Assembly: GCA_943349945.1 (NCBI GenBank) | Contig: CALQZS010000001.1 | Span: 277,953 to 341,952, forward strand | DNA from: Candidatus Nomurabacteria bacterium | GTDB lineage: Bacteria > Patescibacteriota > Minisyncoccia > Phycocordibacterales > SBAW01 | Reading direction: 5' to 3' | DNA: 64,000 nt | Shown here: piece by piece, positions 4,301 through 51,442 of the stretch | How positions within the stretch are numbered: the stretch's first letter is position 1 | Layout: the number at the start of each line of letters is the position of its first letter | Position numbers and translations under genes: made by a program | The notes under the pieces: model-generated | The model's input: only the letters and a program-made list of their open reading frames with translations | Databases searched by the model: none | Told to the model about the DNA's origin: nothing

Positions 4301-5017
4301 CTATTTAGTTGGTTGTCGGCGAATTATCCACTCTTGACCCAAAGAAAGGAGGTTGGTGGTCGCAAAATAGAGCCCCGCAGCAGCTGGAAGAGAGTAGGAC
4401 ACCACAGCCATAAGTGCCGGCAAGAAGTACAACATGAGGTACTTTTGCATCTTTTGCGCCATTTCTTTTTCAGGTGCAAGTGGTTTTTTGCCCGCCTGCT
4501 GCATCCGCCCCAGAGAGAGCATAACCACCCCATACTGCAGCCCTCCAACCAAAAGCGAGAGTATGATGTTGTGTGGTGTCAGCAAGTTTACAAACCCCAA
4601 AAACATAGTGTCTACAAGTGCTGGAGCCTGTACAAACGAGTACAAAAGGTCGGTTGCGATGTTTGGCAAACCTTCTTTAAAGAAGGCAAAGTATAGGGCG
4701 ATAAAGACGGGGATTTGTACCAAAAGTGCCAAAAAACCACTAAAAGGGCGTATTTTGTGCTCTTTAAATAGAGCCATGGTGCGGCGCGCGCGTTCTTCTG
4801 GCTTGTCTTTGTATGTGGTGTTTATCTCATCCACCTCGCCTTGTATGGCCTGCATGCCCATCTGAGTGCGGATAGAGGCGGTAAATGCAGGATAAAACAG
4901 GATGCGCATAATAAGCGTCATCAAAATAATTGCGAACCCAACATCACCGCCCGGCATAATACTGATTAGGTATATAAATCCGTTGTATATGGGCTGTGTC
5001 AAAAATGTTTCAAACAT
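4301..5017 (-). CDS. yidC: membrane protein insertase YidC (short form)
   Basis: Five-TM 238-aa protein; conserved position between rnpA and jag. Confidence 0.85.
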   Translation of the reverse strand: MFETFLTQPIYNGFIYLISIMPGGDVGFAIILMTLIMRILFYPAFTASIRTQMGMQAIQGEVDEINTTYKDKPEERARRTMALFKEHKIRPFSGFLALLVQIPVFIALYFAFFKEGLPNIATDLLYSFVQAPALVDTMFLGFVNLLTPHNIILSLLVGGLQYGVVMLSLGRMQQAGKKPLAPEKEMAQKMQKYLMLYFLPALMAVVSYSLPAAAGLYFATTNLLSLGQEWIIRRQPTK

Positions 5018-5020
5018 ATA

Positions 5021-5335
5021 TTAGGTGCTTTTTTTGAGTAATGTTGCCAAGTCGGCAGCAAATGCCTCGGTAAGTGGCGGGGAAGGGATTTTTTGCACAA
5101 AAACGACTATTTCTCCGGTTCCGGCAACTGGCATGAGCGCCCGATAGACTGCACGGCGCAGCCGATTACGAACTACTGCCTTCTTTGCTACCGCCTTGGA
5201 TACCACGACCGCAGCACGCAGGCTCGTGGTGCCTGGGAGGTGTTTGAGTGATATATACATGGCCCGGCTTGAGCGGCCTCGAGCCAGCACATGCCGAACC
5301 TCTGCTGCGGCAAGGCGCCGCTGTTTGGCAAGCAT
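5021..5335 (-). CDS. rnpA: ribonuclease P protein component
   Basis: Basic 104-aa protein with '..VVRNRLRRAVYRAL..' RnpA signature, directly downstream of rpmH. Confidence 0.8.
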   Translation of the reverse strand: MLAKQRRLAAAEVRHVLARGRSSRAMYISLKHLPGTTSLRAAVVVSKAVAKKAVVRNRLRRAVYRALMPVAGTGEIVVFVQKIPSPPLTEAFAADLATLLKKST

Positions 5336-8221: not shown

Positions 8222-10402
8222 CTACTGTCCAGTTTGTGGACCGCCCGGTGGGTAGGGTGAGGTTGGCACTACACCACCGCGTGATTGCATCCAGGATTGC
8301 ACAGGAGCATCCCAAAAAACAAATTGTGGGTCTTGTGCCGGATTGGATGGTACAGCTCCTAGCGGGTCATTTTTGTCGACCCAGTAGAGTATTTCGTGCA
8401 CCTTGCCGTCATCTCCTTGTGTTTGCCACATGCCACGTATTGCAGGTTTACCGCTTTGGTTTGGATCTTCGCTGCGCGTAAACGCACTTGCAGGCTGTTT
8501 GCCTAGTGCGTACTGCATCACATCGTGCCACATAGGGCCCACAATAAGGCCCGAAACTTTTTTAACCATAGAGGAATTGTCGTTGTTGCCTGCCCAGATG
8601 CCCAAAACAAAGTTGGGGGTATACCCAATGGTCCATGCGTCGCGGTAGTCGTTGGTGGTACCGGTTTTGACCGCTACGTCATAGCCAGGGAACTGCAAAG
8701 CGGAGTTTGCCCCAAGTGGTGCGCGGGCAACAGAGTCTGACAACACATCATTTATCTTTTCTGCTACTGAAGGTGTGAGTATCTGTGTGCCTATAGGTTG
8801 AGTATTGTCTTCGATAATAGTGCCCGCACGGTCTTTAACCTGCAGCACGGGGGTTGGTTGGTAGCGAGTGCCTCCATTGGCAAACACGCCGTATGCGCTG
8901 GTCATATCGAGCAAGGTTACCTCACCACCTCCAAGTACTAGGGTAAGGCCATAGCGGTCGGCGCTACCAAGTGTGGAGATGCCCATAGATTTTGCCAAGC
9001 GAAGAGTGTCGTTTATGCCTGCAAGATAGAGCACTTTGACTGCAGGGATGTTTATGGACTGTGCAAGCGCGTCGCGTAGCGTCATCGGCCCGCGGAAGAT
9101 ATTATCGTAGTTTACCGGAGAGTAACACCCCTCGGTGTCGCCATAGTCGTATGGAGAACAGTTGGTAGAAAATTGCGTCTCTAGGTCAAACAAAACAGTA
9201 TCGGGTTGGTAGCCTTTTTCAAACGCTTTTGCATAGGCAAAGGGCTTAAATGCAGACCCAGGTTGGCGTGTGGCGAGCGCGATGTTGAAGTTGCCATCTA
9301 TTTCGGTGTCAAAATAGTCGCGCGACCCAACCATCATAAGTATCTGGCCGTTGTTTGGGTCTATTGCCACCATGCCCGTGTTCGAAGCGTTGAAGCTTGT
9401 TTGGTTGCTCTGTGCTTTTGCCTGTACCACTCCTTCTGCGTGTACCTGTAGGTCGGCGTCGAGTGTGGTGATGACACTCCAGCCGCCACGCTCAAGCGCA
9501 TCTTCGCCGTACTTGTCCTCCAAATACTGCTGCACATAGAACACAAAGTGAGGGGCTTGGATGGATGATGCACGCGGCACCACAAAGTGCACCCCTGTAG
9601 CCTTCGCTGTTTCCATTTGTTCTTTGGTGATGTAGCCGTGCTCGTGCATTTTGTCGAGCACTAGGTTTTTGCGCTTATCCAAAGCATCTTTGTGGTTGCC
9701 GTACGGCGAGTAATAGGTCGGTGCGGGCATAACTGCGGCTAGGTAGGCTGCCTCGGGCAGGGTAACCTCGCTTGCATGTTTGCCAAAGAAAGTCTCGCTT
9801 GCTTGCTCGGCGCCGTACACGCTGCCTCCGTAGGGGATTTGATTTAAATACAGACCCAAAATCTGCTCCTTGCTGAGCACACGCTCTAGCTTTATAGACA
9901 ATACCCATTCTTTAAGTTTGCGGGATATGGTTTTTTCGGTAGTCAGAATGGACCCTTTAACCACCTGCTGCGTTATGGTGGAGCCGCCTTGGGTTAGACC
10001 TGTGCCGGTCAAAATAACCTGTATGTCTGCCAATATAGCGCGCACAATAGCCGTTGGTTGGATACCTTTGTGCTGGTAAAACCCTGGGTCTTCTATGGCC
10101 AAAGTTGCCTGTTTTATGTAAGGAGATATTTCGTCGAGCGACACAATGGTGCGACGCTCGTTTTTGTTGAGGTCATACAAAAGTGTGGTGCCGGTGCGGT
10201 CGTATATTTTGACCGACTGCTCTATCCGGCGCGTCTCTATAGACGACAAGTCGGGGACTTGCAGGGTTGCTGCCCACAGAAAGAATCCGCCAACCGCCAA
10301 AAGAGAAAAACTGACGCCCCACACCAAAAGCCCAAACCAGTGACGACGGATAAAACGACCAACACTGCGGGCGACCGTAAGGAGTTTTGCCATAAAGGCC
10401 AT
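8222..10402 (-). CDS. class A penicillin-binding protein (bifunctional glycosyltransferase/transpeptidase, PBP1A-like)
   Basis: N-terminal TM; GT51 motif '..AIEDPGFYQHKGI..'; transpeptidase SxxK 'SAFKPF' and 'KTGTT'. Confidence 0.8.
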   Translation of the reverse strand: MAFMAKLLTVARSVGRFIRRHWFGLLVWGVSFSLLAVGGFFLWAATLQVPDLSSIETRRIEQSVKIYDRTGTTLLYDLNKNERRTIVSLDEISPYIKQATLAIEDPGFYQHKGIQPTAIVRAILADIQVILTGTGLTQGGSTITQQVVKGSILTTEKTISRKLKEWVLSIKLERVLSKEQILGLYLNQIPYGGSVYGAEQASETFFGKHASEVTLPEAAYLAAVMPAPTYYSPYGNHKDALDKRKNLVLDKMHEHGYITKEQMETAKATGVHFVVPRASSIQAPHFVFYVQQYLEDKYGEDALERGGWSVITTLDADLQVHAEGVVQAKAQSNQTSFNASNTGMVAIDPNNGQILMMVGSRDYFDTEIDGNFNIALATRQPGSAFKPFAYAKAFEKGYQPDTVLFDLETQFSTNCSPYDYGDTEGCYSPVNYDNIFRGPMTLRDALAQSINIPAVKVLYLAGINDTLRLAKSMGISTLGSADRYGLTLVLGGGEVTLLDMTSAYGVFANGGTRYQPTPVLQVKDRAGTIIEDNTQPIGTQILTPSVAEKINDVLSDSVARAPLGANSALQFPGYDVAVKTGTTNDYRDAWTIGYTPNFVLGIWAGNNDNSSMVKKVSGLIVGPMWHDVMQYALGKQPASAFTRSEDPNQSGKPAIRGMWQTQGDDGKVHEILYWVDKNDPLGAVPSNPAQDPQFVFWDAPVQSWMQSRGGVVPTSPYPPGGPQTGQ

Positions 10403-11977: not shown

Positions 11978-12503
11978 GGCAGGTAAGACCCACGGCTATT
12001 GCGTCCATTTCGTCATCCAACGCTCGTTTACCCGAGGGGAGCGTCTGTAACCCTAGGAGCCGCAGCACCATCATAGAAACAGCGGATTTGTTGCTCTGTC
12101 CGTAGCCCGTAATGGCCACTTTTACTTGCAGCGGTGTGTATTCGTAGACAGGTAGATTGTTTTTTGAGGCAAGATACAGCAGTACGCCACGCACCGCGGC
12201 AACATTCATAGCTGTTTTTGCATTTTTTTCGAAATAGAGACTCTCTGTGGCTGCCATGGTTGGCTGCCACTGCGCAAGAAGTGCTTCGACGGCGCTACCA
12301 AGCTGGTGCAGGCGCTCTGCAAACTCCAACTTTGCGCTGGTTTGTATGCAGGTTGAGTGCAATAAAACTTCTTTACCGCCCTGTTTTTCTACGACCGCTA
12401 CCCCTAGGCGCTCAAACCCCGGATCAAAAGCCAACACCCGCAGAGTAGATAACGAAGGACAGTCCTTCGCGAAGGACTGTCCTTCGTTTGGTTTATTCTG
12501 CAT
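11952..12503 (-). CDS. ruvC: crossover junction endodeoxyribonuclease RuvC (start uncertain; the ORF-track start at 12551 would make the intergenic palindrome coding)
   Basis: '..LRVLAFDPGFERLGVAVVE..' RuvC N-terminal catalytic motif (Asp); RNase H fold size. Confidence 0.75.
   Translation of the reverse strand: MQNKPNEGQSFAKDCPSLSTLRVLAFDPGFERLGVAVVEKQGGKEVLLHSTCIQTSAKLEFAERLHQLGSAVEALLAQWQPTMAATESLYFEKNAKTAMNVAAVRGVLLYLASKNNLPVYEYTPLQVKVAITGYGQSNKSAVSMMVLRLLGLQTLPSGKRALDDEMDAIAVGLTCLASVRPGR
12451..12488. repeat. 38-bp perfect palindrome, copy 1 of 2; core CGAAGGACAGTCCTTCGCGAAGGACTGTCCTTCG
   Basis: Checked base by base: the sequence equals its own reverse complement. Lies between the yebC stop (12493) and the likely ruvC start. 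The second copy is at 51403-51442. Confidence 0.85.
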
Positions 12504-20231: not shown

Positions 20232-20349
20232 GTTTACGAAGGTTTGTTTTTTTTGTCATCACAACTCTCACCCTCGCCGACGCTCGGGTTCGGTCGCGAT
20301 CCCGCCTCGCGGTCTCGTCTGCTGACTCGACATCGCTCCGGCTCGGACA

Positions 20350-20390
20350 AAAGCAGAAAACCTGCCGCAGGGCAGGTGTTTCTGACTTTT
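20350..20390. terminator. hairpin terminator downstream of tRNA-Lys (bidirectional with the FecR-like gene)
   Basis: 'cctgccgcagggcagg' stem-loop flanked by T-rich runs on both strands. Confidence 0.5.
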
Positions 20391-20391
20391 G

Positions 20392-20464
20392 TCCGCCCAC
20401 CAGGATTCGAACCTGGGACCATCTCCTTAAAAGGGAGCTGCTCTACCAACTGAGCTATGGGCGG
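20392..20464 (-). tRNA. tRNA-Lys (anticodon UUU)
   Basis: Manual fold: acceptor CCGCCCA/TGGGCGG, D-arm GCTC-AGTTGGTA-GAGC, anticodon loop CTTTTAA, T-arm CCAGG-TTCGAAT-CCTGG, discriminator A, no encoded CCA. Confidence 0.85.
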
Positions 20465-23925: not shown

Positions 23926-24135
23926 TTTGGGGAGAACAGCAACCCTTTGAGTTTGTAGAAGTCAGACTTCTACAGGTTGGTTCGGCCGGATCGCCCGCGG
24001 CTCTCGGCTCGTCGTCACTTGCCTCGGCCTGGGCACCGCCTCGCTCCCGCATCTGCTGATGCGGGGCCCGCTCCGGCGTTCGATTCCTGCACGCACGCAA
24101 AACACTTTGCGTGCTCTCTGCACAAACTTTGTTTG

Positions 24136-24207
24136 TGCTCCCGGCAGGAATCGAACCTGCAGCGCCTCCTTCGGAGGGAGGCATTCTATCCATTAAACTA
24201 CGGGAGC
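24136..24207 (-). tRNA. tRNA-Arg (anticodon CCG)
   Basis: Manual fold: acceptor GCTCCCG/CGGGAGC, D-loop AATGGATA, anticodon loop CTCCGAA, T-arm GCAGG-TTCGATT-CCTGC, discriminator A. Confidence 0.85.
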
Positions 24208-27344: not shown

Positions 27345-27788
27345 ATGAAATACCTCGGCATAGATTATGGGACAAAGCGCATAGGCGTGGCTGTGTCGGA
27401 CGACACGGGGACGCTCGCATTCCCCCTGGGGCTAGTGGCGGCGGGTGCGGGGGCGCTCGAGGAGGTGTTGGAGCTTGCCCGCGAGAATGGTGTCGAGACT
27501 TTTGTGTTGGGCGAGTCGCGCAATTTTAAAGGCGAGGCAAACCCGGTGATGCGCGAAATAGAGAAATTTAAAGTGGCGCTCGAGGCAGCGGGGAAGAAGG
27601 TAATACTCGAGCCCGAGTATATGACCAGCGCTGCTGCCGAGCATCAGCACACCCACACGCACGACGCGCACACGGGCCGGCCTACACGCAAAGAGGCGGT
27701 GTCGAAAGAGTTTTTGGACTCCTCGGCAGCTGCGCTTATTTTGCAATCGTTTTTGGATCGAACAAAACAACAATCTGAGGTAGAATAG
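27345..27788 (+). CDS. ruvX: YqgF/RuvX-family putative pre-16S rRNA nuclease / Holliday-junction resolvase-like protein
   Basis: 'MKYLGIDYGTKRIGVAVSD..' RNase H-fold motif. Confidence 0.8.
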   Translation: MKYLGIDYGTKRIGVAVSDDTGTLAFPLGLVAAGAGALEEVLELARENGVETFVLGESRNFKGEANPVMREIEKFKVALEAAGKKVILEPEYMTSAAAEHQHTHTHDAHTGRPTRKEAVSKEFLDSSAAALILQSFLDRTKQQSEVE

Positions 27789-28878: not shown

Positions 28879-28950
28879 GCCCCTGTAGTTAAATGGATAT
28901 AACTGCGGACTTCTAAGCCGTTATTCTTGGTTCGATTCCAAGCGGGGGCA
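28879..28950 (+). tRNA. tRNA-Arg (anticodon UCU)
   Basis: Acceptor GCCCCTG/CGGGGGC, D-loop AATGGATA shared with the other Arg tRNAs, anticodon loop CTTCTAA (A31-G39 mismatch), T-arm CTTGG-TTCGATT-CCAAG. Confidence 0.8.
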
Positions 28951-28997
28951 GGAAAGGTACAAATATTCCGCCTGCGCGGAATTTTGTGCTTTCATGC

Positions 28998-29081
28998 CGG
29001 CCGGAGCGATGTCCTGCAATTGCGGGACCGCGAGGCGGGGTCGAGAAAATTCTGAGCGACGGCGAAGAATTATTCGTGACC
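28998..29081 (+). repeat. tRNA-trailer repeat element, most complete copy: CCGGAGCGATGTC ... GACCGCGAGGCGGGGTCG ... a 15-bp imperfect hairpin ending GTGACC
   Basis: Blocks shared with copies at 20265-20345 (reverse strand), 23978-24092 (reverse strand) and 29298-29353. Located after the tRNA-Arg terminator hairpin and before tRNA-Val. Confidence 0.55.
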
Positions 29082-29146
29082 ACAAAAAAAAGAACTGTTG
29101 AAATTCTTTTCCAATAAGGGTACAGTAGGGTTCGGCAACAGGCCGA

Positions 29147-29219
29147 TGCGCGGTTAGCTCAGTTGGTAGAGCAACTCATTTACACTGAGAAGGTCGGGGG
29201 TTCGAGCCCCTCACCGCGC
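29147..29219 (+). tRNA. tRNA-Val (anticodon UAC), CCA encoded (29220-29222)
   Basis: Acceptor GCGCGGT/ACCGCGC, D-arm GCTC-AGTTGGTA-GAGC, anticodon loop TTTACAC, T-arm GGGGG-TTCGAGC-CCCTC, discriminator A followed by CCA. Confidence 0.85.
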
Positions 29220-29222
29220 ACC

Positions 29223-29262
29223 AAAAACAAAATCCCCGACAAAATCGGGGATTTTGTTTTTG
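29223..29262 (+). terminator. rho-independent terminator after tRNA-Val
   Basis: 'aaaatccccga-caaa-atcggggatttt' followed by 'gtttttgg'. Confidence 0.55.
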
Positions 29263-29297
29263 GTATTGGGATGTAGTGAGGGGCTCGAAAGCCACAG

Positions 29298-29353
29298 ACG
29301 CGACGGCGTCGAGGCGGGGTCGCAAAAATTTCCAGCAGGAAATTATTTGTGAC
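29298..29353 (+). repeat. second copy of the 3' part of the tRNA-trailer repeat (GCGACGGCG / GTCGAGGCGGGGTCG / a 16-bp hairpin ending GTGACC), upstream of rluA
   Basis: Hairpin 'ggtcgcaaaaatttcc-agca-ggaaattatttgtgacc', matching the 29039-29081 hairpin with compensatory stem changes. Confidence 0.5.
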
Positions 29354-29402
29354 CGAGTCTCCCTGATAGCCAAGTCTCTATATTTAGTGTTCACTGTAGT
29401 TA

Positions 29403-30118
29403 TGGACCCCACCGTACTCTACGAAGACGATTCTGTTATCGTCGTCAACAAGCCTGCTGGTCTGGCTGTGCATGCCGACGGCAAACACGACCGCGCAACG
29501 CTGGTGGACTGGTTGCTTGCCGAGTACCCAGATATTAAAGGAGTAGGGGAGCCACAAACGCTCGCCGACGGCACCACTATAGAGCGTCCGGGCATAGTGC
29601 ACCGACTCGACCGCGAGACGTCGGGAGTGTTGATTGTGGCGCGCACGCAAGAGAGTTTTGATTTTTTGAAGGAGCAGTTTCATGAACGCGAGGTGCGCAA
29701 GGTGTATCGTGCGTTTGTATATGGAAACATCAAAGACGACCGGGGTATTATCGACAAGCCCATTGGCAGCACTCGCGGCGGCACGGGCCCACGTTCTGCA
29801 AAAAACGCCTACGGGGTTATGCGCGATGCTCTGACCATGTACCGGGTTATTACCCGAACGCCAGAAGTGACCTACGTCGAAGTGTTCCCCAAAACTGGCC
29901 GTACGCACCAAATCCGTGTGCACTTTGCGGCCATACAGCGCCCTATAGTGGGGGACAGGCTCTATGCGTCGCGTCGCGAAGCAAGGCTTGGGTTCAACAG
30001 ATTAGCGCTTCATGCCTTATCGCTTACGGTCAAGATCCCTCGTGGGGGCGAGCGCACGTTTGAAGCGCCCCTACCCCCCGATTTTGTGCAGGCAGAGCAG
30101 GAATTGCGAAGTATTTGA
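29403..30118 (+). CDS. RluA-family 23S rRNA/tRNA pseudouridine synthase
   Basis: '..HRLDRETSGVLIVAR..' catalytic Asp motif; start set at MDPTVLYEDD. Confidence 0.8.
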
Positions 30119-32711: not shown

Positions 32712-32784
32712 GGTGCCTATGGTGTAAAGGTTAACACTCGAGTTTGTGGAACTCGCAATCTGGGTTCGATTCCCAGTAGGCACC
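32712..32784 (+). tRNA. tRNA-His (anticodon GUG) with encoded G-1 and encoded CCA (32785-32787)
   Basis: Extra 5' G pairing with discriminator C73; acceptor GTGCCTA/TAGGCAC; anticodon loop TTGTGGA; T-arm CTGGG-TTCGATT-CCCAG. Confidence 0.85.
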
Positions 32785-32803
32785 CCAGAATAATTATTTA
32801 TAC

Positions 32804-34912: not shown

Positions 34913-35419
34913 ATGGCAAAGAAAGCAAAGAAAAAGCAAAAAGAGTATATGGAGCAACTGGCGCTCACGGTTACTCGTGCGGTCGGCTCTTTGGAGTCGG
35001 TAATCATCCACACATTCATTTTTGCGGGGAGTTTTGTATTGGTGCAGCTGGGGCTCGTGCCTTTTGAGCGGATGTTGCTTGTGTTGACCACCATTGTGTC
35101 TTTGGAGGCCATATACCTTTCTATTTTTATACAAATGACTATAAATTATACGACGCGTACTATCGAAAACGTCGAACAAGATATCGAAGAGATCCAAGAA
35201 GACATTGACGAAATCCAAGAGGACGTCGACGAGATTCAAGAAGACGTGGATGAAATTCAAGAAAATGTCGACGAGATTCAAGAGGATGTGGAAGAGATGA
35301 CCGAAGACGAAAAAGCAGAGGAGGCGGCGCAAGTGGGTCAAGAAAAAACACTCGACGAAATCCGCACAGGTCTACAAAAGCTCATGCAGGATGTTGAGAA
35401 GCTGCATAACCGCCCCTAA
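34913..35419 (+). CDS. hypothetical membrane protein (2 TM) with C-terminal tandem acidic heptad repeats (D/E-I/V-D/E-E-I-Q-E x6)
   Basis: '..EQDIEEIQEDIDEIQEDVDEIQEDVDEIQENVDEIQEDVEEM..' encoded by 21-nt tandem repeats at ~35163-35290; N-terminal architecture resembles DUF1003-type proteins. Confidence 0.45.
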   Translation: MAKKAKKKQKEYMEQLALTVTRAVGSLESVIIHTFIFAGSFVLVQLGLVPFERMLLVLTTIVSLEAIYLSIFIQMTINYTTRTIENVEQDIEEIQEDIDEIQEDVDEIQEDVDEIQENVDEIQEDVEEMTEDEKAEEAAQVGQEKTLDEIRTGLQKLMQDVEKLHNRP

Positions 35420-51402: not shown

Positions 51403-51442
51403 TTACGAAGGTCAGTCCTTCGCGAAGGACTGACCTTCGTAA
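51403..51442. repeat. 40-bp perfect palindrome, copy 2 of 2 (TTACGAAGGTCAGTCCTTCGCGAAGGACTGACCTTCGTAA), with a perfect DnaA box 'ttatccaca' 7 bp upstream
   Basis: The sequence equals its own reverse complement. It differs from copy 1 (12451-12488) only by symmetric A<->T swaps that preserve the palindrome. Intergenic, between recO and the GspE-like ATPase. Confidence 0.85.

Follow-up and report, generated by a model that had tools for sequence, protein, structure and literature searches.

The stretch of DNA analysed here (the window) comprises 64 kb of a Candidatus Nomurabacteria contig (CALQZS010000001.1), and homologues of its RluA place the genome within the Patescibacteria (Candidatus Paceibacterota). 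Two of its transfer RNA (tRNA) genes, tRNA-Arg(UCU) and tRNA-Val(UAC), lie ahead of rluA, and each is followed on the same strand by a small folded unit. These units, termed copies C and D, belong to a family of gene-less elements of about 130-200 nt, in which no open reading frame (ORF) was found. Each unit starts with a hairpin, H1, which is followed by X', a segment complementary to part of the upstream gene, and by a core that extends to GTGAC, behind which a direct copy of gene sequence is often found. The core measures about 90 nt and consists of the two hairpins P2 and P3, with GTGAC at its 3' end. The features of copies C and D are:

28879..28950, + strand: tRNA-Arg(UCU), host gene of copy C (ARAGORN, Rfam)
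28951..28993, + strand: H1 of C, a long, terminator-like hairpin with loop CUGC and a U-tract (fold, sequence)
28965-28982, + strand: call of the terminator scan within H1 of C
28994-28998, + strand: X' of C (type 1), atgcc, complementary to the last bases of the tRNA (sequence)
28996..29081, + strand: core C, 87.9 bits (covariance model, fold, family alignment and covariation); P2 reads GCC-G-GA-GCG-AU-hairpin-CGC-GA-GGC, the linker is GG, and P3 reads GGUCG...bulged A...GUGACC with the apex GAGC-GACG-GCGA
29098-29126: promoter-like site of tRNA-Val(UAC) itself
29148..29223, + strand: tRNA-Val(UAC), host gene of copy D (ARAGORN, Rfam)
29223..29261, + strand: H1 of D, a perfect A-tract/U-tract hairpin abutting the tRNA (fold, sequence)
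29276..29289, + strand: X' of D, gtgaggggctcgaa (BLAST self-match, sequence)
29287..29354, + strand: core D, short form, 46.6 bits (covariance model); P2 is GACGC-GACG-GCGUC and the P3 loop is a plain AGCA
29354..29371, + strand: diverged copy of the tRNA-Val 3' end, CGAGTCTCCCTGATAGCC versus CGAGCCCCTCACCGCGCA (sequence)

Two further copies, A and B, are situated on the opposite strand of the window:

20391..20464, - strand: tRNA-Lys(UUU), host gene of copy A (ARAGORN, Rfam)
20349..20390, - strand: H1 of A, a terminator-like hairpin with loop CUGC (fold)
20377-20360, - strand: call of the terminator scan within H1 of A
20257..20346, - strand: core A, 77.1 bits (covariance model, fold)
24135..24207, - strand: tRNA-Arg(CCG), host gene of copy B (ARAGORN, Rfam)
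24093..24115, - strand: H1 of B, agcacgcaaa-gtgt-tttgcgtgc (sequence)
24079..24090, - strand: X' of B, gcaggaatcgaa, the reverse complement of ttcgattcctgc in the tRNA (sequence)
23992..24081, - strand: core B, 41.0 bits, E about 2e-7, changed at the base of P3 (covariance model)
23976..23993, - strand: decayed copy of the tRNA-Arg(CCG) 3' end, CGATCCGGCCGAACCAAC (sequence)

A covariance model was built from 95 family members and run over the window with filters off. It returned exactly four significant matches, the copies A to D, and the next match reached 11.9 bits. Units thus occupy four of the eight tRNA genes of the window (Lys, Arg-CCG, Arg-UCU and Val), and Arg(GCG), Ser, Leu and His are free of them. 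The original prediction, made from the sequence of the C and D region, had described conserved blocks and a hairpin in both copies and a recurrence of the blocks behind two other tRNA genes; the sequences were confirmed at the positions given, the hairpins at 29039-29081 and 29318-29354 fold as described (z-scores of -5.2 and -6.4, respectively), and the recurrences correspond to copies A and B. Block 1, CCGGAGCGATGTC, lies at 29001-29013 and has a second exact match at 20329-20341 on the minus strand, and GAGGCGGGGTCG is found twice (29032-29043 and 29311-29322). Counts of these short patterns in the window are by themselves not above chance, and it is the model built from 95 members that settles family membership. 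An 11/12 match at 27693 was dismissed as chance, since it lies inside a RuvX-like ORF and has no model match. A repeat search also bore out that this is no CRISPR array: regularly spaced repeats are absent here, and the units are diverged and tied to tRNA genes.

On self-comparison, the four copies have in common only the conserved junction blocks. Copies C and A adopt one shared fold, running from H1 through P2 and the GG linker to P3; the compensating stems of core A differ from those of C, and the apex of its P2 is 2 nt longer. The conserved blocks of A and C are not equally spaced, the difference being 2 nt, which leaves no common reading frame, and a coding function of the element was rejected on this ground. 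Copy D represents a short-form variant, also present in L093, L094 and L103 (L numbers denote individual loci), in which P2 carries the GACG loop that usually caps P3. Copy B is diverged; its H1 is of an AGCA...UGCG type that recurs in many type-2 units (see below).

The core is a conserved structure, upheld by covariation throughout the family. An alignment of the 95 cores with MAFFT gave a consensus of 31 pairs, and 21 of these show compensatory double changes, so that the stem covariation first proposed from two copies holds on a broader basis. Paired cells amount to 95.3% as against 74.6% in shuffled alignments, a value that none of 500 shuffles reached; sliding the partners by 1-3 columns left at most 44% paired, and the covariation score was 0.526 versus 0.158 after shuffling. 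Copies and covariation were both found elsewhere, and the proposed refutation, their absence, fails decisively. The internal loop of P2 is conserved (GSC-G-NA-GCG-AU ... CGC-GA-GSC) and is followed by two G residues; in the outer P2 helix, C-G and G-C occur in a ratio of 47 to 46. P3 forms a long hairpin, GGUCG ... bulged A ... GUGACC, in which the bulged A of the 3' strand is invariant and the fifth pair is G.U in 95 of 95 sequences.

Over the alignment, G.U and U.G pairs number 178 and A.C and C.A pairs 17. This excess identifies the tRNA-sense strand as the one that folds and, together with the invariant G.U, excludes a symmetric duplex operator, which the original prediction had offered as an alternative for the GTGACC/GGTCAC ends of the hairpin. 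A strand-specific intermediate of single-stranded DNA would produce an equal G.T bias; the active folded form may be RNA or single-stranded DNA.

Each unit is matched to the gene behind which it lies. In type-2 units, X' is the reverse complement of the T-loop and the 3' strand of the T-stem (14 of 14 nt in copy D, where gtgaggggctcgaa is the exact reverse complement of 29201-29214 in tRNA-Val), and it tracks the variants of the T-loop, UUCGA occurring with UCGAA and UUCAA with UUGAA. In type-1 units, to which copies A and C belong, X' is complementary to the final bases of the tRNA (..CAC..) and forms the foot of a long H1. The corresponding gene segment, X, is duplicated precisely, as a direct copy just 3' of GTGAC: at least 10 nt from C56 of the T-loop onwards are identical in 28 of 107 pattern matches, and the direct repeat exceeds the 95th percentile of re-paired controls in 63 of 146 copies, 47 of these repeats beginning 0-2 nt from GTGAC. 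The duplicated flank in L022 spans 45 nt and includes a terminator hairpin, and in several loci, among them L097, L117 and L104, the right-hand copy carries an encoded CCA but the left one does not. In the window, the right-hand copies of B and D are decayed and belong to the older ones. That of D begins at the last C of GTGACC, two of its differences preserve G.U pairing with X', and its intact counterpart is found in L001.

X' and the right-hand copy pair as a further helix, P0, with a mean of 7.1 bp in type-2 units (5.3 bp in controls) and a fixed GUG/CAC geometry of 4-6 bp in type-1 units. P0 was recovered independently by alifold on 28 type-2 units. The helices P0, P2 and P3 meet in a three-way junction: a linker of 3-4 nt precedes P2, GG joins P2 to P3, and the insertion junction itself has no linker. 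X' is about equally complementary to the real tRNA (93%) and to the duplicate (88%). Beyond the original prediction, P3 hence appears as one arm of a three-way junction, and the hairpin taken there for the terminator of the tRNA, H1, is part of the unit. The junction, H1, X' and the copy of the gene end at GTGAC together characterise an insertion unit; the predicted repeat family is real, but its members are not plain processed tRNA trailers.

Two additional contacts were considered and rejected. Kissing between the loops of H1 (CUGC) and P2 (AGCA) was dropped as the loop variants do not co-vary when inspected by eye, and a complete tRNA-like acceptor stem around the unit as the complementarity upstream of H1 averages 5.4 bp compared with 5.0 bp in controls; complementarity of that region to the acceptor 3' strand exists in some units (L068, L090, L116). 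Many type-2 units carry an extra conserved block, GAACGAAGUGAG, between the tRNA 3' end and H1 (L106, L034, L033, L109, L063, L012, L107 and L075), which the copies of the window lack.

Comparison of related genomes reveals empty and occupied alleles of one site, and different occupants in it. In L221, the closest available relative, whose RluA is 93% identical to that of the window, the tRNA-Val site is empty and reads ...GGTTCGAGCCCCTCACCGCGCACA-aa-GTG, the last triplet being the start of rluA. L001 instead carries tRNA-Val, a small H1, X', a long-form core and then CGAGCCCCTCACCGCGCACA-aa-ATG; this equals the empty site with an insertion added, on whose flanks 20 nt are duplicated. In the window, a distinct unit of the short form occupies this T-loop position; its right copy is diverged, and there is extra spacer. 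The tRNA-Val of L222 is followed by another, different long-form unit, and the site is empty in L003, L005 and L223. The unit behind tRNA-Arg(UCU) is shared with the syntenic relatives L001 and L003, and L005 has none there nor at tRNA-Val. The set of occupied tRNAs is different in each related genome. The gap between tRNA-Val and rluA is a hotspot also for other DNA: L005 has a MazE/PemK toxin-antitoxin pair there (9404-9984), and L223 an unrelated ORF of 93 amino acids (204-485).

One insertion lies in the end of a protein-coding gene. L008 and L050 contain a topA-like ORF whose final ~75 nt, amounting to 24 codons plus stop, occur twice, once on either side of H1, X' and core; X' reads TTTTTGT, which complements the beginning of the duplicate. 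These insertions are orthologous to each other; their stems of P2 and P3 are wholly different and still paired.

The family was searched for in a collection of species-representative genomes with a pattern derived from the window and syntenic copies. At least 120 matches were listed, nearly all of them in Patescibacteria; those listed include Paceibacterota, Nomura-, Kaiser-, Taylor-, Adler-, Giovannoni- and Moranbacteria and Minisyncoccia as well as metagenome-assembled genomes labelled Saccharibacteria. Over 723 kb of fetched loci, the covariance model gave 150 matches. Good cores of 60-95 bits also occur in metagenome-assembled genomes labelled 'Elusimicrobia' (L019, L064) and 'Gammaproteobacteria' (L043), which reflects either mis-binning or a broader host range; the matches in L042, L110 and L118 are chance hits in GC-rich coding DNA. 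In a viral collection of 2.9 million contigs, one of 15 pattern matches was a real core, and a phage origin was rejected on this count. Rfam 15 at gathering threshold identified tRNAs only in the whole window, merely noise over tRNA and terminator in the region 28940-29410 at E up to 10, and no match on any core at E up to 0.05 in the eight loci with the best-scoring cores. Literature searches, including exact sequence strings, found no paper on the element. The family is most safely described as previously undescribed, superphylum-wide, gene-less insertion units with a conserved folded core, which target the 3' ends of tRNA and transfer-messenger RNA (tmRNA) genes and rebuild the end of their target.

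As predicted, the family is linked to tRNA genes: for 115 of 163 cores, the 3' end of a same-strand tRNA lies less than 200 nt upstream, in most cases at 40-70 nt, and these tRNAs cover 18 amino-acid specificities. At six loci (L011, L028, L030, L052, L067 and L082) a tmRNA gene takes the place of the tRNA. Two units are located in 16S-23S spacers, in L087 directly behind tRNA-Ile and in L113 past the 3' end of the 16S rRNA, without a tRNA detected ahead of the unit. The spacer of L113 also contains a group II intron D1-D4 match at gathering score (765-872) and that of L087 a weak group I intron match (984-1099). Units are often arrayed in tandem. In L099, a run of three is followed by a run of two and then by a single unit, and array growth by segmental duplication is visible there as an A-B-A pattern; further arrays occur in L039, L035, L081 and L107. 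In L026, L033 and L071 the next tRNA begins about 17-35 nt past the unit. As this gap leaves no room for a promoter, these units are presumably also transcribed within a tRNA precursor. H1 of A and C score as intrinsic terminators in the scan, a property that holds for part of the family only, many type-2 H1 hairpins being devoid of a U-tract; a promoter-like site was found before no core in the window. Clustering of the ORFs of 120 loci returned housekeeping neighbours only and no recurrent recombinase, and a linked protein gene was rejected for that reason. L221, L222, L223 and many contigs of recombinase loci end ~100-500 nt from a tRNA or inside a unit, and the units may break short-read assemblies next to tRNAs.

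We favour the interpretation, at a probability of about one half, that these are small, gene-less, Patescibacteria-specific insertion units which enter tRNA and tmRNA genes, and in one orthologous case a topA-like gene, at their 3' ends and rebuild the end of the target. Such a unit would begin with a copy of X, covering everything between the insertion point and the gene's end, so that the gene stays intact. H1, often a terminator look-alike, would come next, then X', which complements the initial 4-14 nt of X, and the ~90-nt core of P2 and P3 up to GTGAC, which the displaced original copy of X would directly follow. On the sense strand, X' and the displaced copy would form P0, placing the insertion junction exactly at the centre of the three-way junction. 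The conserved junction may then serve as the cis-acting site of a hypothetical enzyme encoded elsewhere in the genome, which would exchange strands at GTGAC|N with a target matching the P0 sequence. The nearest mechanistic analogues would be sites that act as folded single strands, such as integron attC and the attP hairpin of CTX phage, which is used by host Xer.

Several observations weigh against this interpretation. The cores of A and C are preceded by a good intrinsic terminator and lack a promoter of their own, and among the neighbours of units in the 120 clustered loci there is no linked recombinase, transposase or reverse transcriptase. The model does not account for how a unit gains an X and X' that fit a new target. 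The variable stems diverge strongly among the copies of one genome, identical copies at different tRNAs were not seen, and there is hence no sign of a recent burst. In L008 and L050, turnover of the stems with the structure kept fits selection in place for a host or RNA function equally as well as mobility, and it is conceivable that the empty sites arose by precise loss and are not ancestral.

A further reading, which we regard as unlikely, is a new class of programmable mobile element, in which a folded junction of ~90 nt, possibly catalytic at GUGAC|N, would use X' as a guide to pick any sequence near the 3' end of a gene, insert there and duplicate that end. It would spread via RNA or imported single-stranded DNA among these bacteria of very small genome size. 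Guide-directed targeting is suggested by the occurrence of the same scaffold at T-loops, tRNA 3' termini, tmRNA ends and a protein-coding end, always with a matching X'.

Among the explanations without mobility, a non-coding RNA module that benefits the host is possible, if doubtful. The junction would form when the trailer is transcribed within tRNA precursors, with a role in tRNA or tmRNA 3'-end processing, in protection from exonucleases or in binding a tRNA-handling protein, and the duplicated ends would be by-products of local tandem duplication and hairpin-templated mutation. The units indeed always lie on the sense strand behind stable-RNA genes, including tight tRNA clusters that are necessarily co-transcribed, and by the count in the window they occupy about half of the tRNA genes of a streamlined genome. 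The orthologous topA-like site has kept its structure despite full turnover of the stems, X' complements the real tRNA no less than it does the duplicate, and the A-B-A pattern of L099 conforms to array growth by segmental duplication. However, the closest relative has no unit at tRNA-Val and a pristine junction, and relatives carry units at other tRNAs, so that no given tRNA requires one. A unit in the end of a protein gene and the position of A and C behind terminators are likewise difficult to accommodate, and a duplicate that starts at GTGAC in 47 cases is not what random tandem duplication predicts.

It is rather improbable that the core is a catalytic RNA, a self-cleaving and self-ligating ribozyme or intron-like molecule with X' as internal guide and GUGAC|N as reaction site, from which unit-length or circular RNAs could form and spread through RNA. 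The lack of a linker between P3 and P0, which places the core's 3' end right beside the first base of X, recalls the geometry of the hammerhead cleavage site; the invariant G.U, the bulged A and tandem G.A motifs, the unit boundaries at GTGAC|X in arrays, and an encoded CCA confined to the right-hand copy in L097, L117 and L104 are in line with this view. Yet no ribozyme of Rfam matches even at permissive thresholds, the hammerhead core is absent (no CUGANGA, and ACC instead of NUH), the 120 loci contain no linked reverse transcriptase, and the upstream gene is complete without splicing; hammerhead, group I and group II readings were rejected because their defining cores are absent. The units could also be scars or naked attachment sites of larger, integrase-carrying tRNA islands, with the core as island end. 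A full tRNA on one side, a partial one on the other and tandem insertions are the classical signature of such islands, serine recombinase genes abut tRNAs in L005, L026, L037, L109 and L117, and L078 has a 4.4-kb segment with a large serine recombinase and cargo between two copies of a tRNA-Ser 3' end, X' and core adjoining the right copy at the far end of the segment. But L078 is the only one of 163 cores with cargo, the 80 metagenomic loci around relatives of its recombinase (571 kb, 91 tRNAs) are devoid of any core, and the viral contigs held one real match. Duplex protein-binding arms, moreover, would show neither compensatory stem changes nor a G.U bias. A serine-recombinase island was rejected as parent, other recombinase insertions have no core at their far ends, and the island explanation, highly unlikely in our view, is largely refuted already. 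For a double-stranded inverted-repeat operator (GGTC...GACC) bound by a local regulator speak the near-palindromic base of P3 and the position of copy D just upstream of rluA; given an invariant G.U inside the 'half-site', the strong strand asymmetry, unrelated downstream neighbours (other tRNAs, convergent genes, housekeeping genes) and a conservation that spans the second hairpin and the junction, this explanation retains next to no probability.

Large serine recombinases are arranged tail-to-tail with tRNA genes in L005 (11564-13204, His), L026 (1029-2591, Ser), L037 (79-1821, Leu), L078 (931-2544, Ser) and L117 (3275-4999, Glu). These recombinase ORFs end inside the tRNA of the opposite strand, their last ~20 codons being antisense tRNA, and tblastn matches a recombinase tail to tRNA-His of the window (32734-32793). 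In L078, inverted repeats of 60-150 bp (970-1100 versus 2506-2640) enclose the serine recombinase gene and take in its own 3' end, and the enclosed segment looks invertible; a second inverted pair brackets the cargo (2640-2800 versus 4990-5170). Such repeats are also found in L141 and L142.

With respect to known systems, the element fails the defining tests of each recombination-site and island family with which it was compared. It resembles integron attC in that the units lie on the 3' side of genes and form arrays, that the structure is conserved beyond the sequence, with covarying P3 stems and the invariant extrahelical A expected of attC, and that in the closing helix an internal box is paired with the bases immediately past the junction; the recombination site of attC is likewise a folded single strand. 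Sites of attC are defined by R''/R' core sites (RYYYAAC ... GTTRRRY) with crossover at G|TT. The units lack GTTRRRY/RYYYAAC boxes, their consensus ending in GUGACC and P3 starting with GGUCG, and they form a three-way junction rather than a single hairpin and target tRNA and tmRNA genes. In contrast to integrons, no integron integrase or attI is found nearby in the 120 loci, and the units contain no ORF, their stem lengths shifting the frame. Integrative mobile elements exploiting Xer recombination (IMEX) of the CTX-phage type possess an attP of folded single-stranded DNA that is used by host XerCD. As in the CTX case, inverted target copies ~90 nt apart fold into a duplex that mimics the chromosomal target, the element encodes no recombinase, and regeneration of the target permits tandem insertions; however, the target is not dif and varies by copy, and the units measure 150 nt rather than a phage genome.

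Tycheposons are genomic islands that integrate at tRNA and tmRNA genes (10.1101/2020.12.28.424599). They share with the units insertion at the T-loop or the 3' terminus of such genes, a new 3' end supplied by the element, a partial tRNA copy on the far side and successive insertions split by partial tRNAs (10.1101/2020.12.28.424599). A full tRNA and a partial direct repeat at the flanks, by which islands are recognised, are present here, as the comparison of the empty L221 with the occupied L001 shows directly. In contrast to tycheposons, 162 of 163 units are without integrase or cargo, and the units span about 150 nt instead of kilobases and have a covarying folded core. The classes of insertion sublocation reportedly go back to Williams 2002, which appears in the reference list of the tycheposon preprint.

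REP and REPIN sequences are similarly short, gene-less, intergenic, hairpin-forming and multi-copy, often lie near terminators and are presumed to be mobilised in trans; the units differ in that copies within a genome are highly diverged, occur strictly at the 3' ends of specific genes and duplicate their target. REP sequences and miniature inverted-repeat transposable elements are defined by near-identical copies with terminal inverted repeats or a GTAG-type REP hairpin; in the units, terminal inverted repeats are lacking, and a RAYT-type gene was not seen. Class C group II introns insert behind intrinsic-terminator hairpins and recognise a single-strand structure plus a few paired bases. Type-1 units lie directly behind terminator hairpins and pair with the bases before them in a comparable manner, but they span 90 nt versus more than 600 nt and lack domain V/VI, a GUGYG start and a reverse transcriptase, and the intron models of Rfam do not match the cores. 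The hammerhead ribozyme is defined by a CUGANGA / GAA core and an NUH cleavage triplet. The units share with it the three-way junction and a GA-stem-GA arrangement; in contrast to the hammerhead, the strands between P0 and P2 and between P2 and P3 form a covarying GSC/GSC helix, the triplet is ACC, and Rfam gives no match.

Two repeats of other kinds were observed in the window. A perfect, non-coding palindrome of 36 nt, ACGAAGG(A/T)CAGTCCTTCG-CGAAGGACTG(T/A)CCTTCGT, occurs at 12449-12484 and at 51404-51439, and five or six tandem 21-nt repeats within an ORF (35172-35297) encode acidic, EEIQEDVD-like heptads.

The genomes of Patescibacteria are among the smallest and least understood in bacteria, and the element sits on about half of the tRNA genes of the window. 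If it is a mobile element, it would be one of the smallest known and would enter essential genes without breaking them, and its short complementary segment, specific for the target, would be of interest for guided DNA insertion. If it is a host RNA, it would fill a gap in what is known of how these organisms mature their tRNA and tmRNA. For genome annotation, the element should be masked or modelled.

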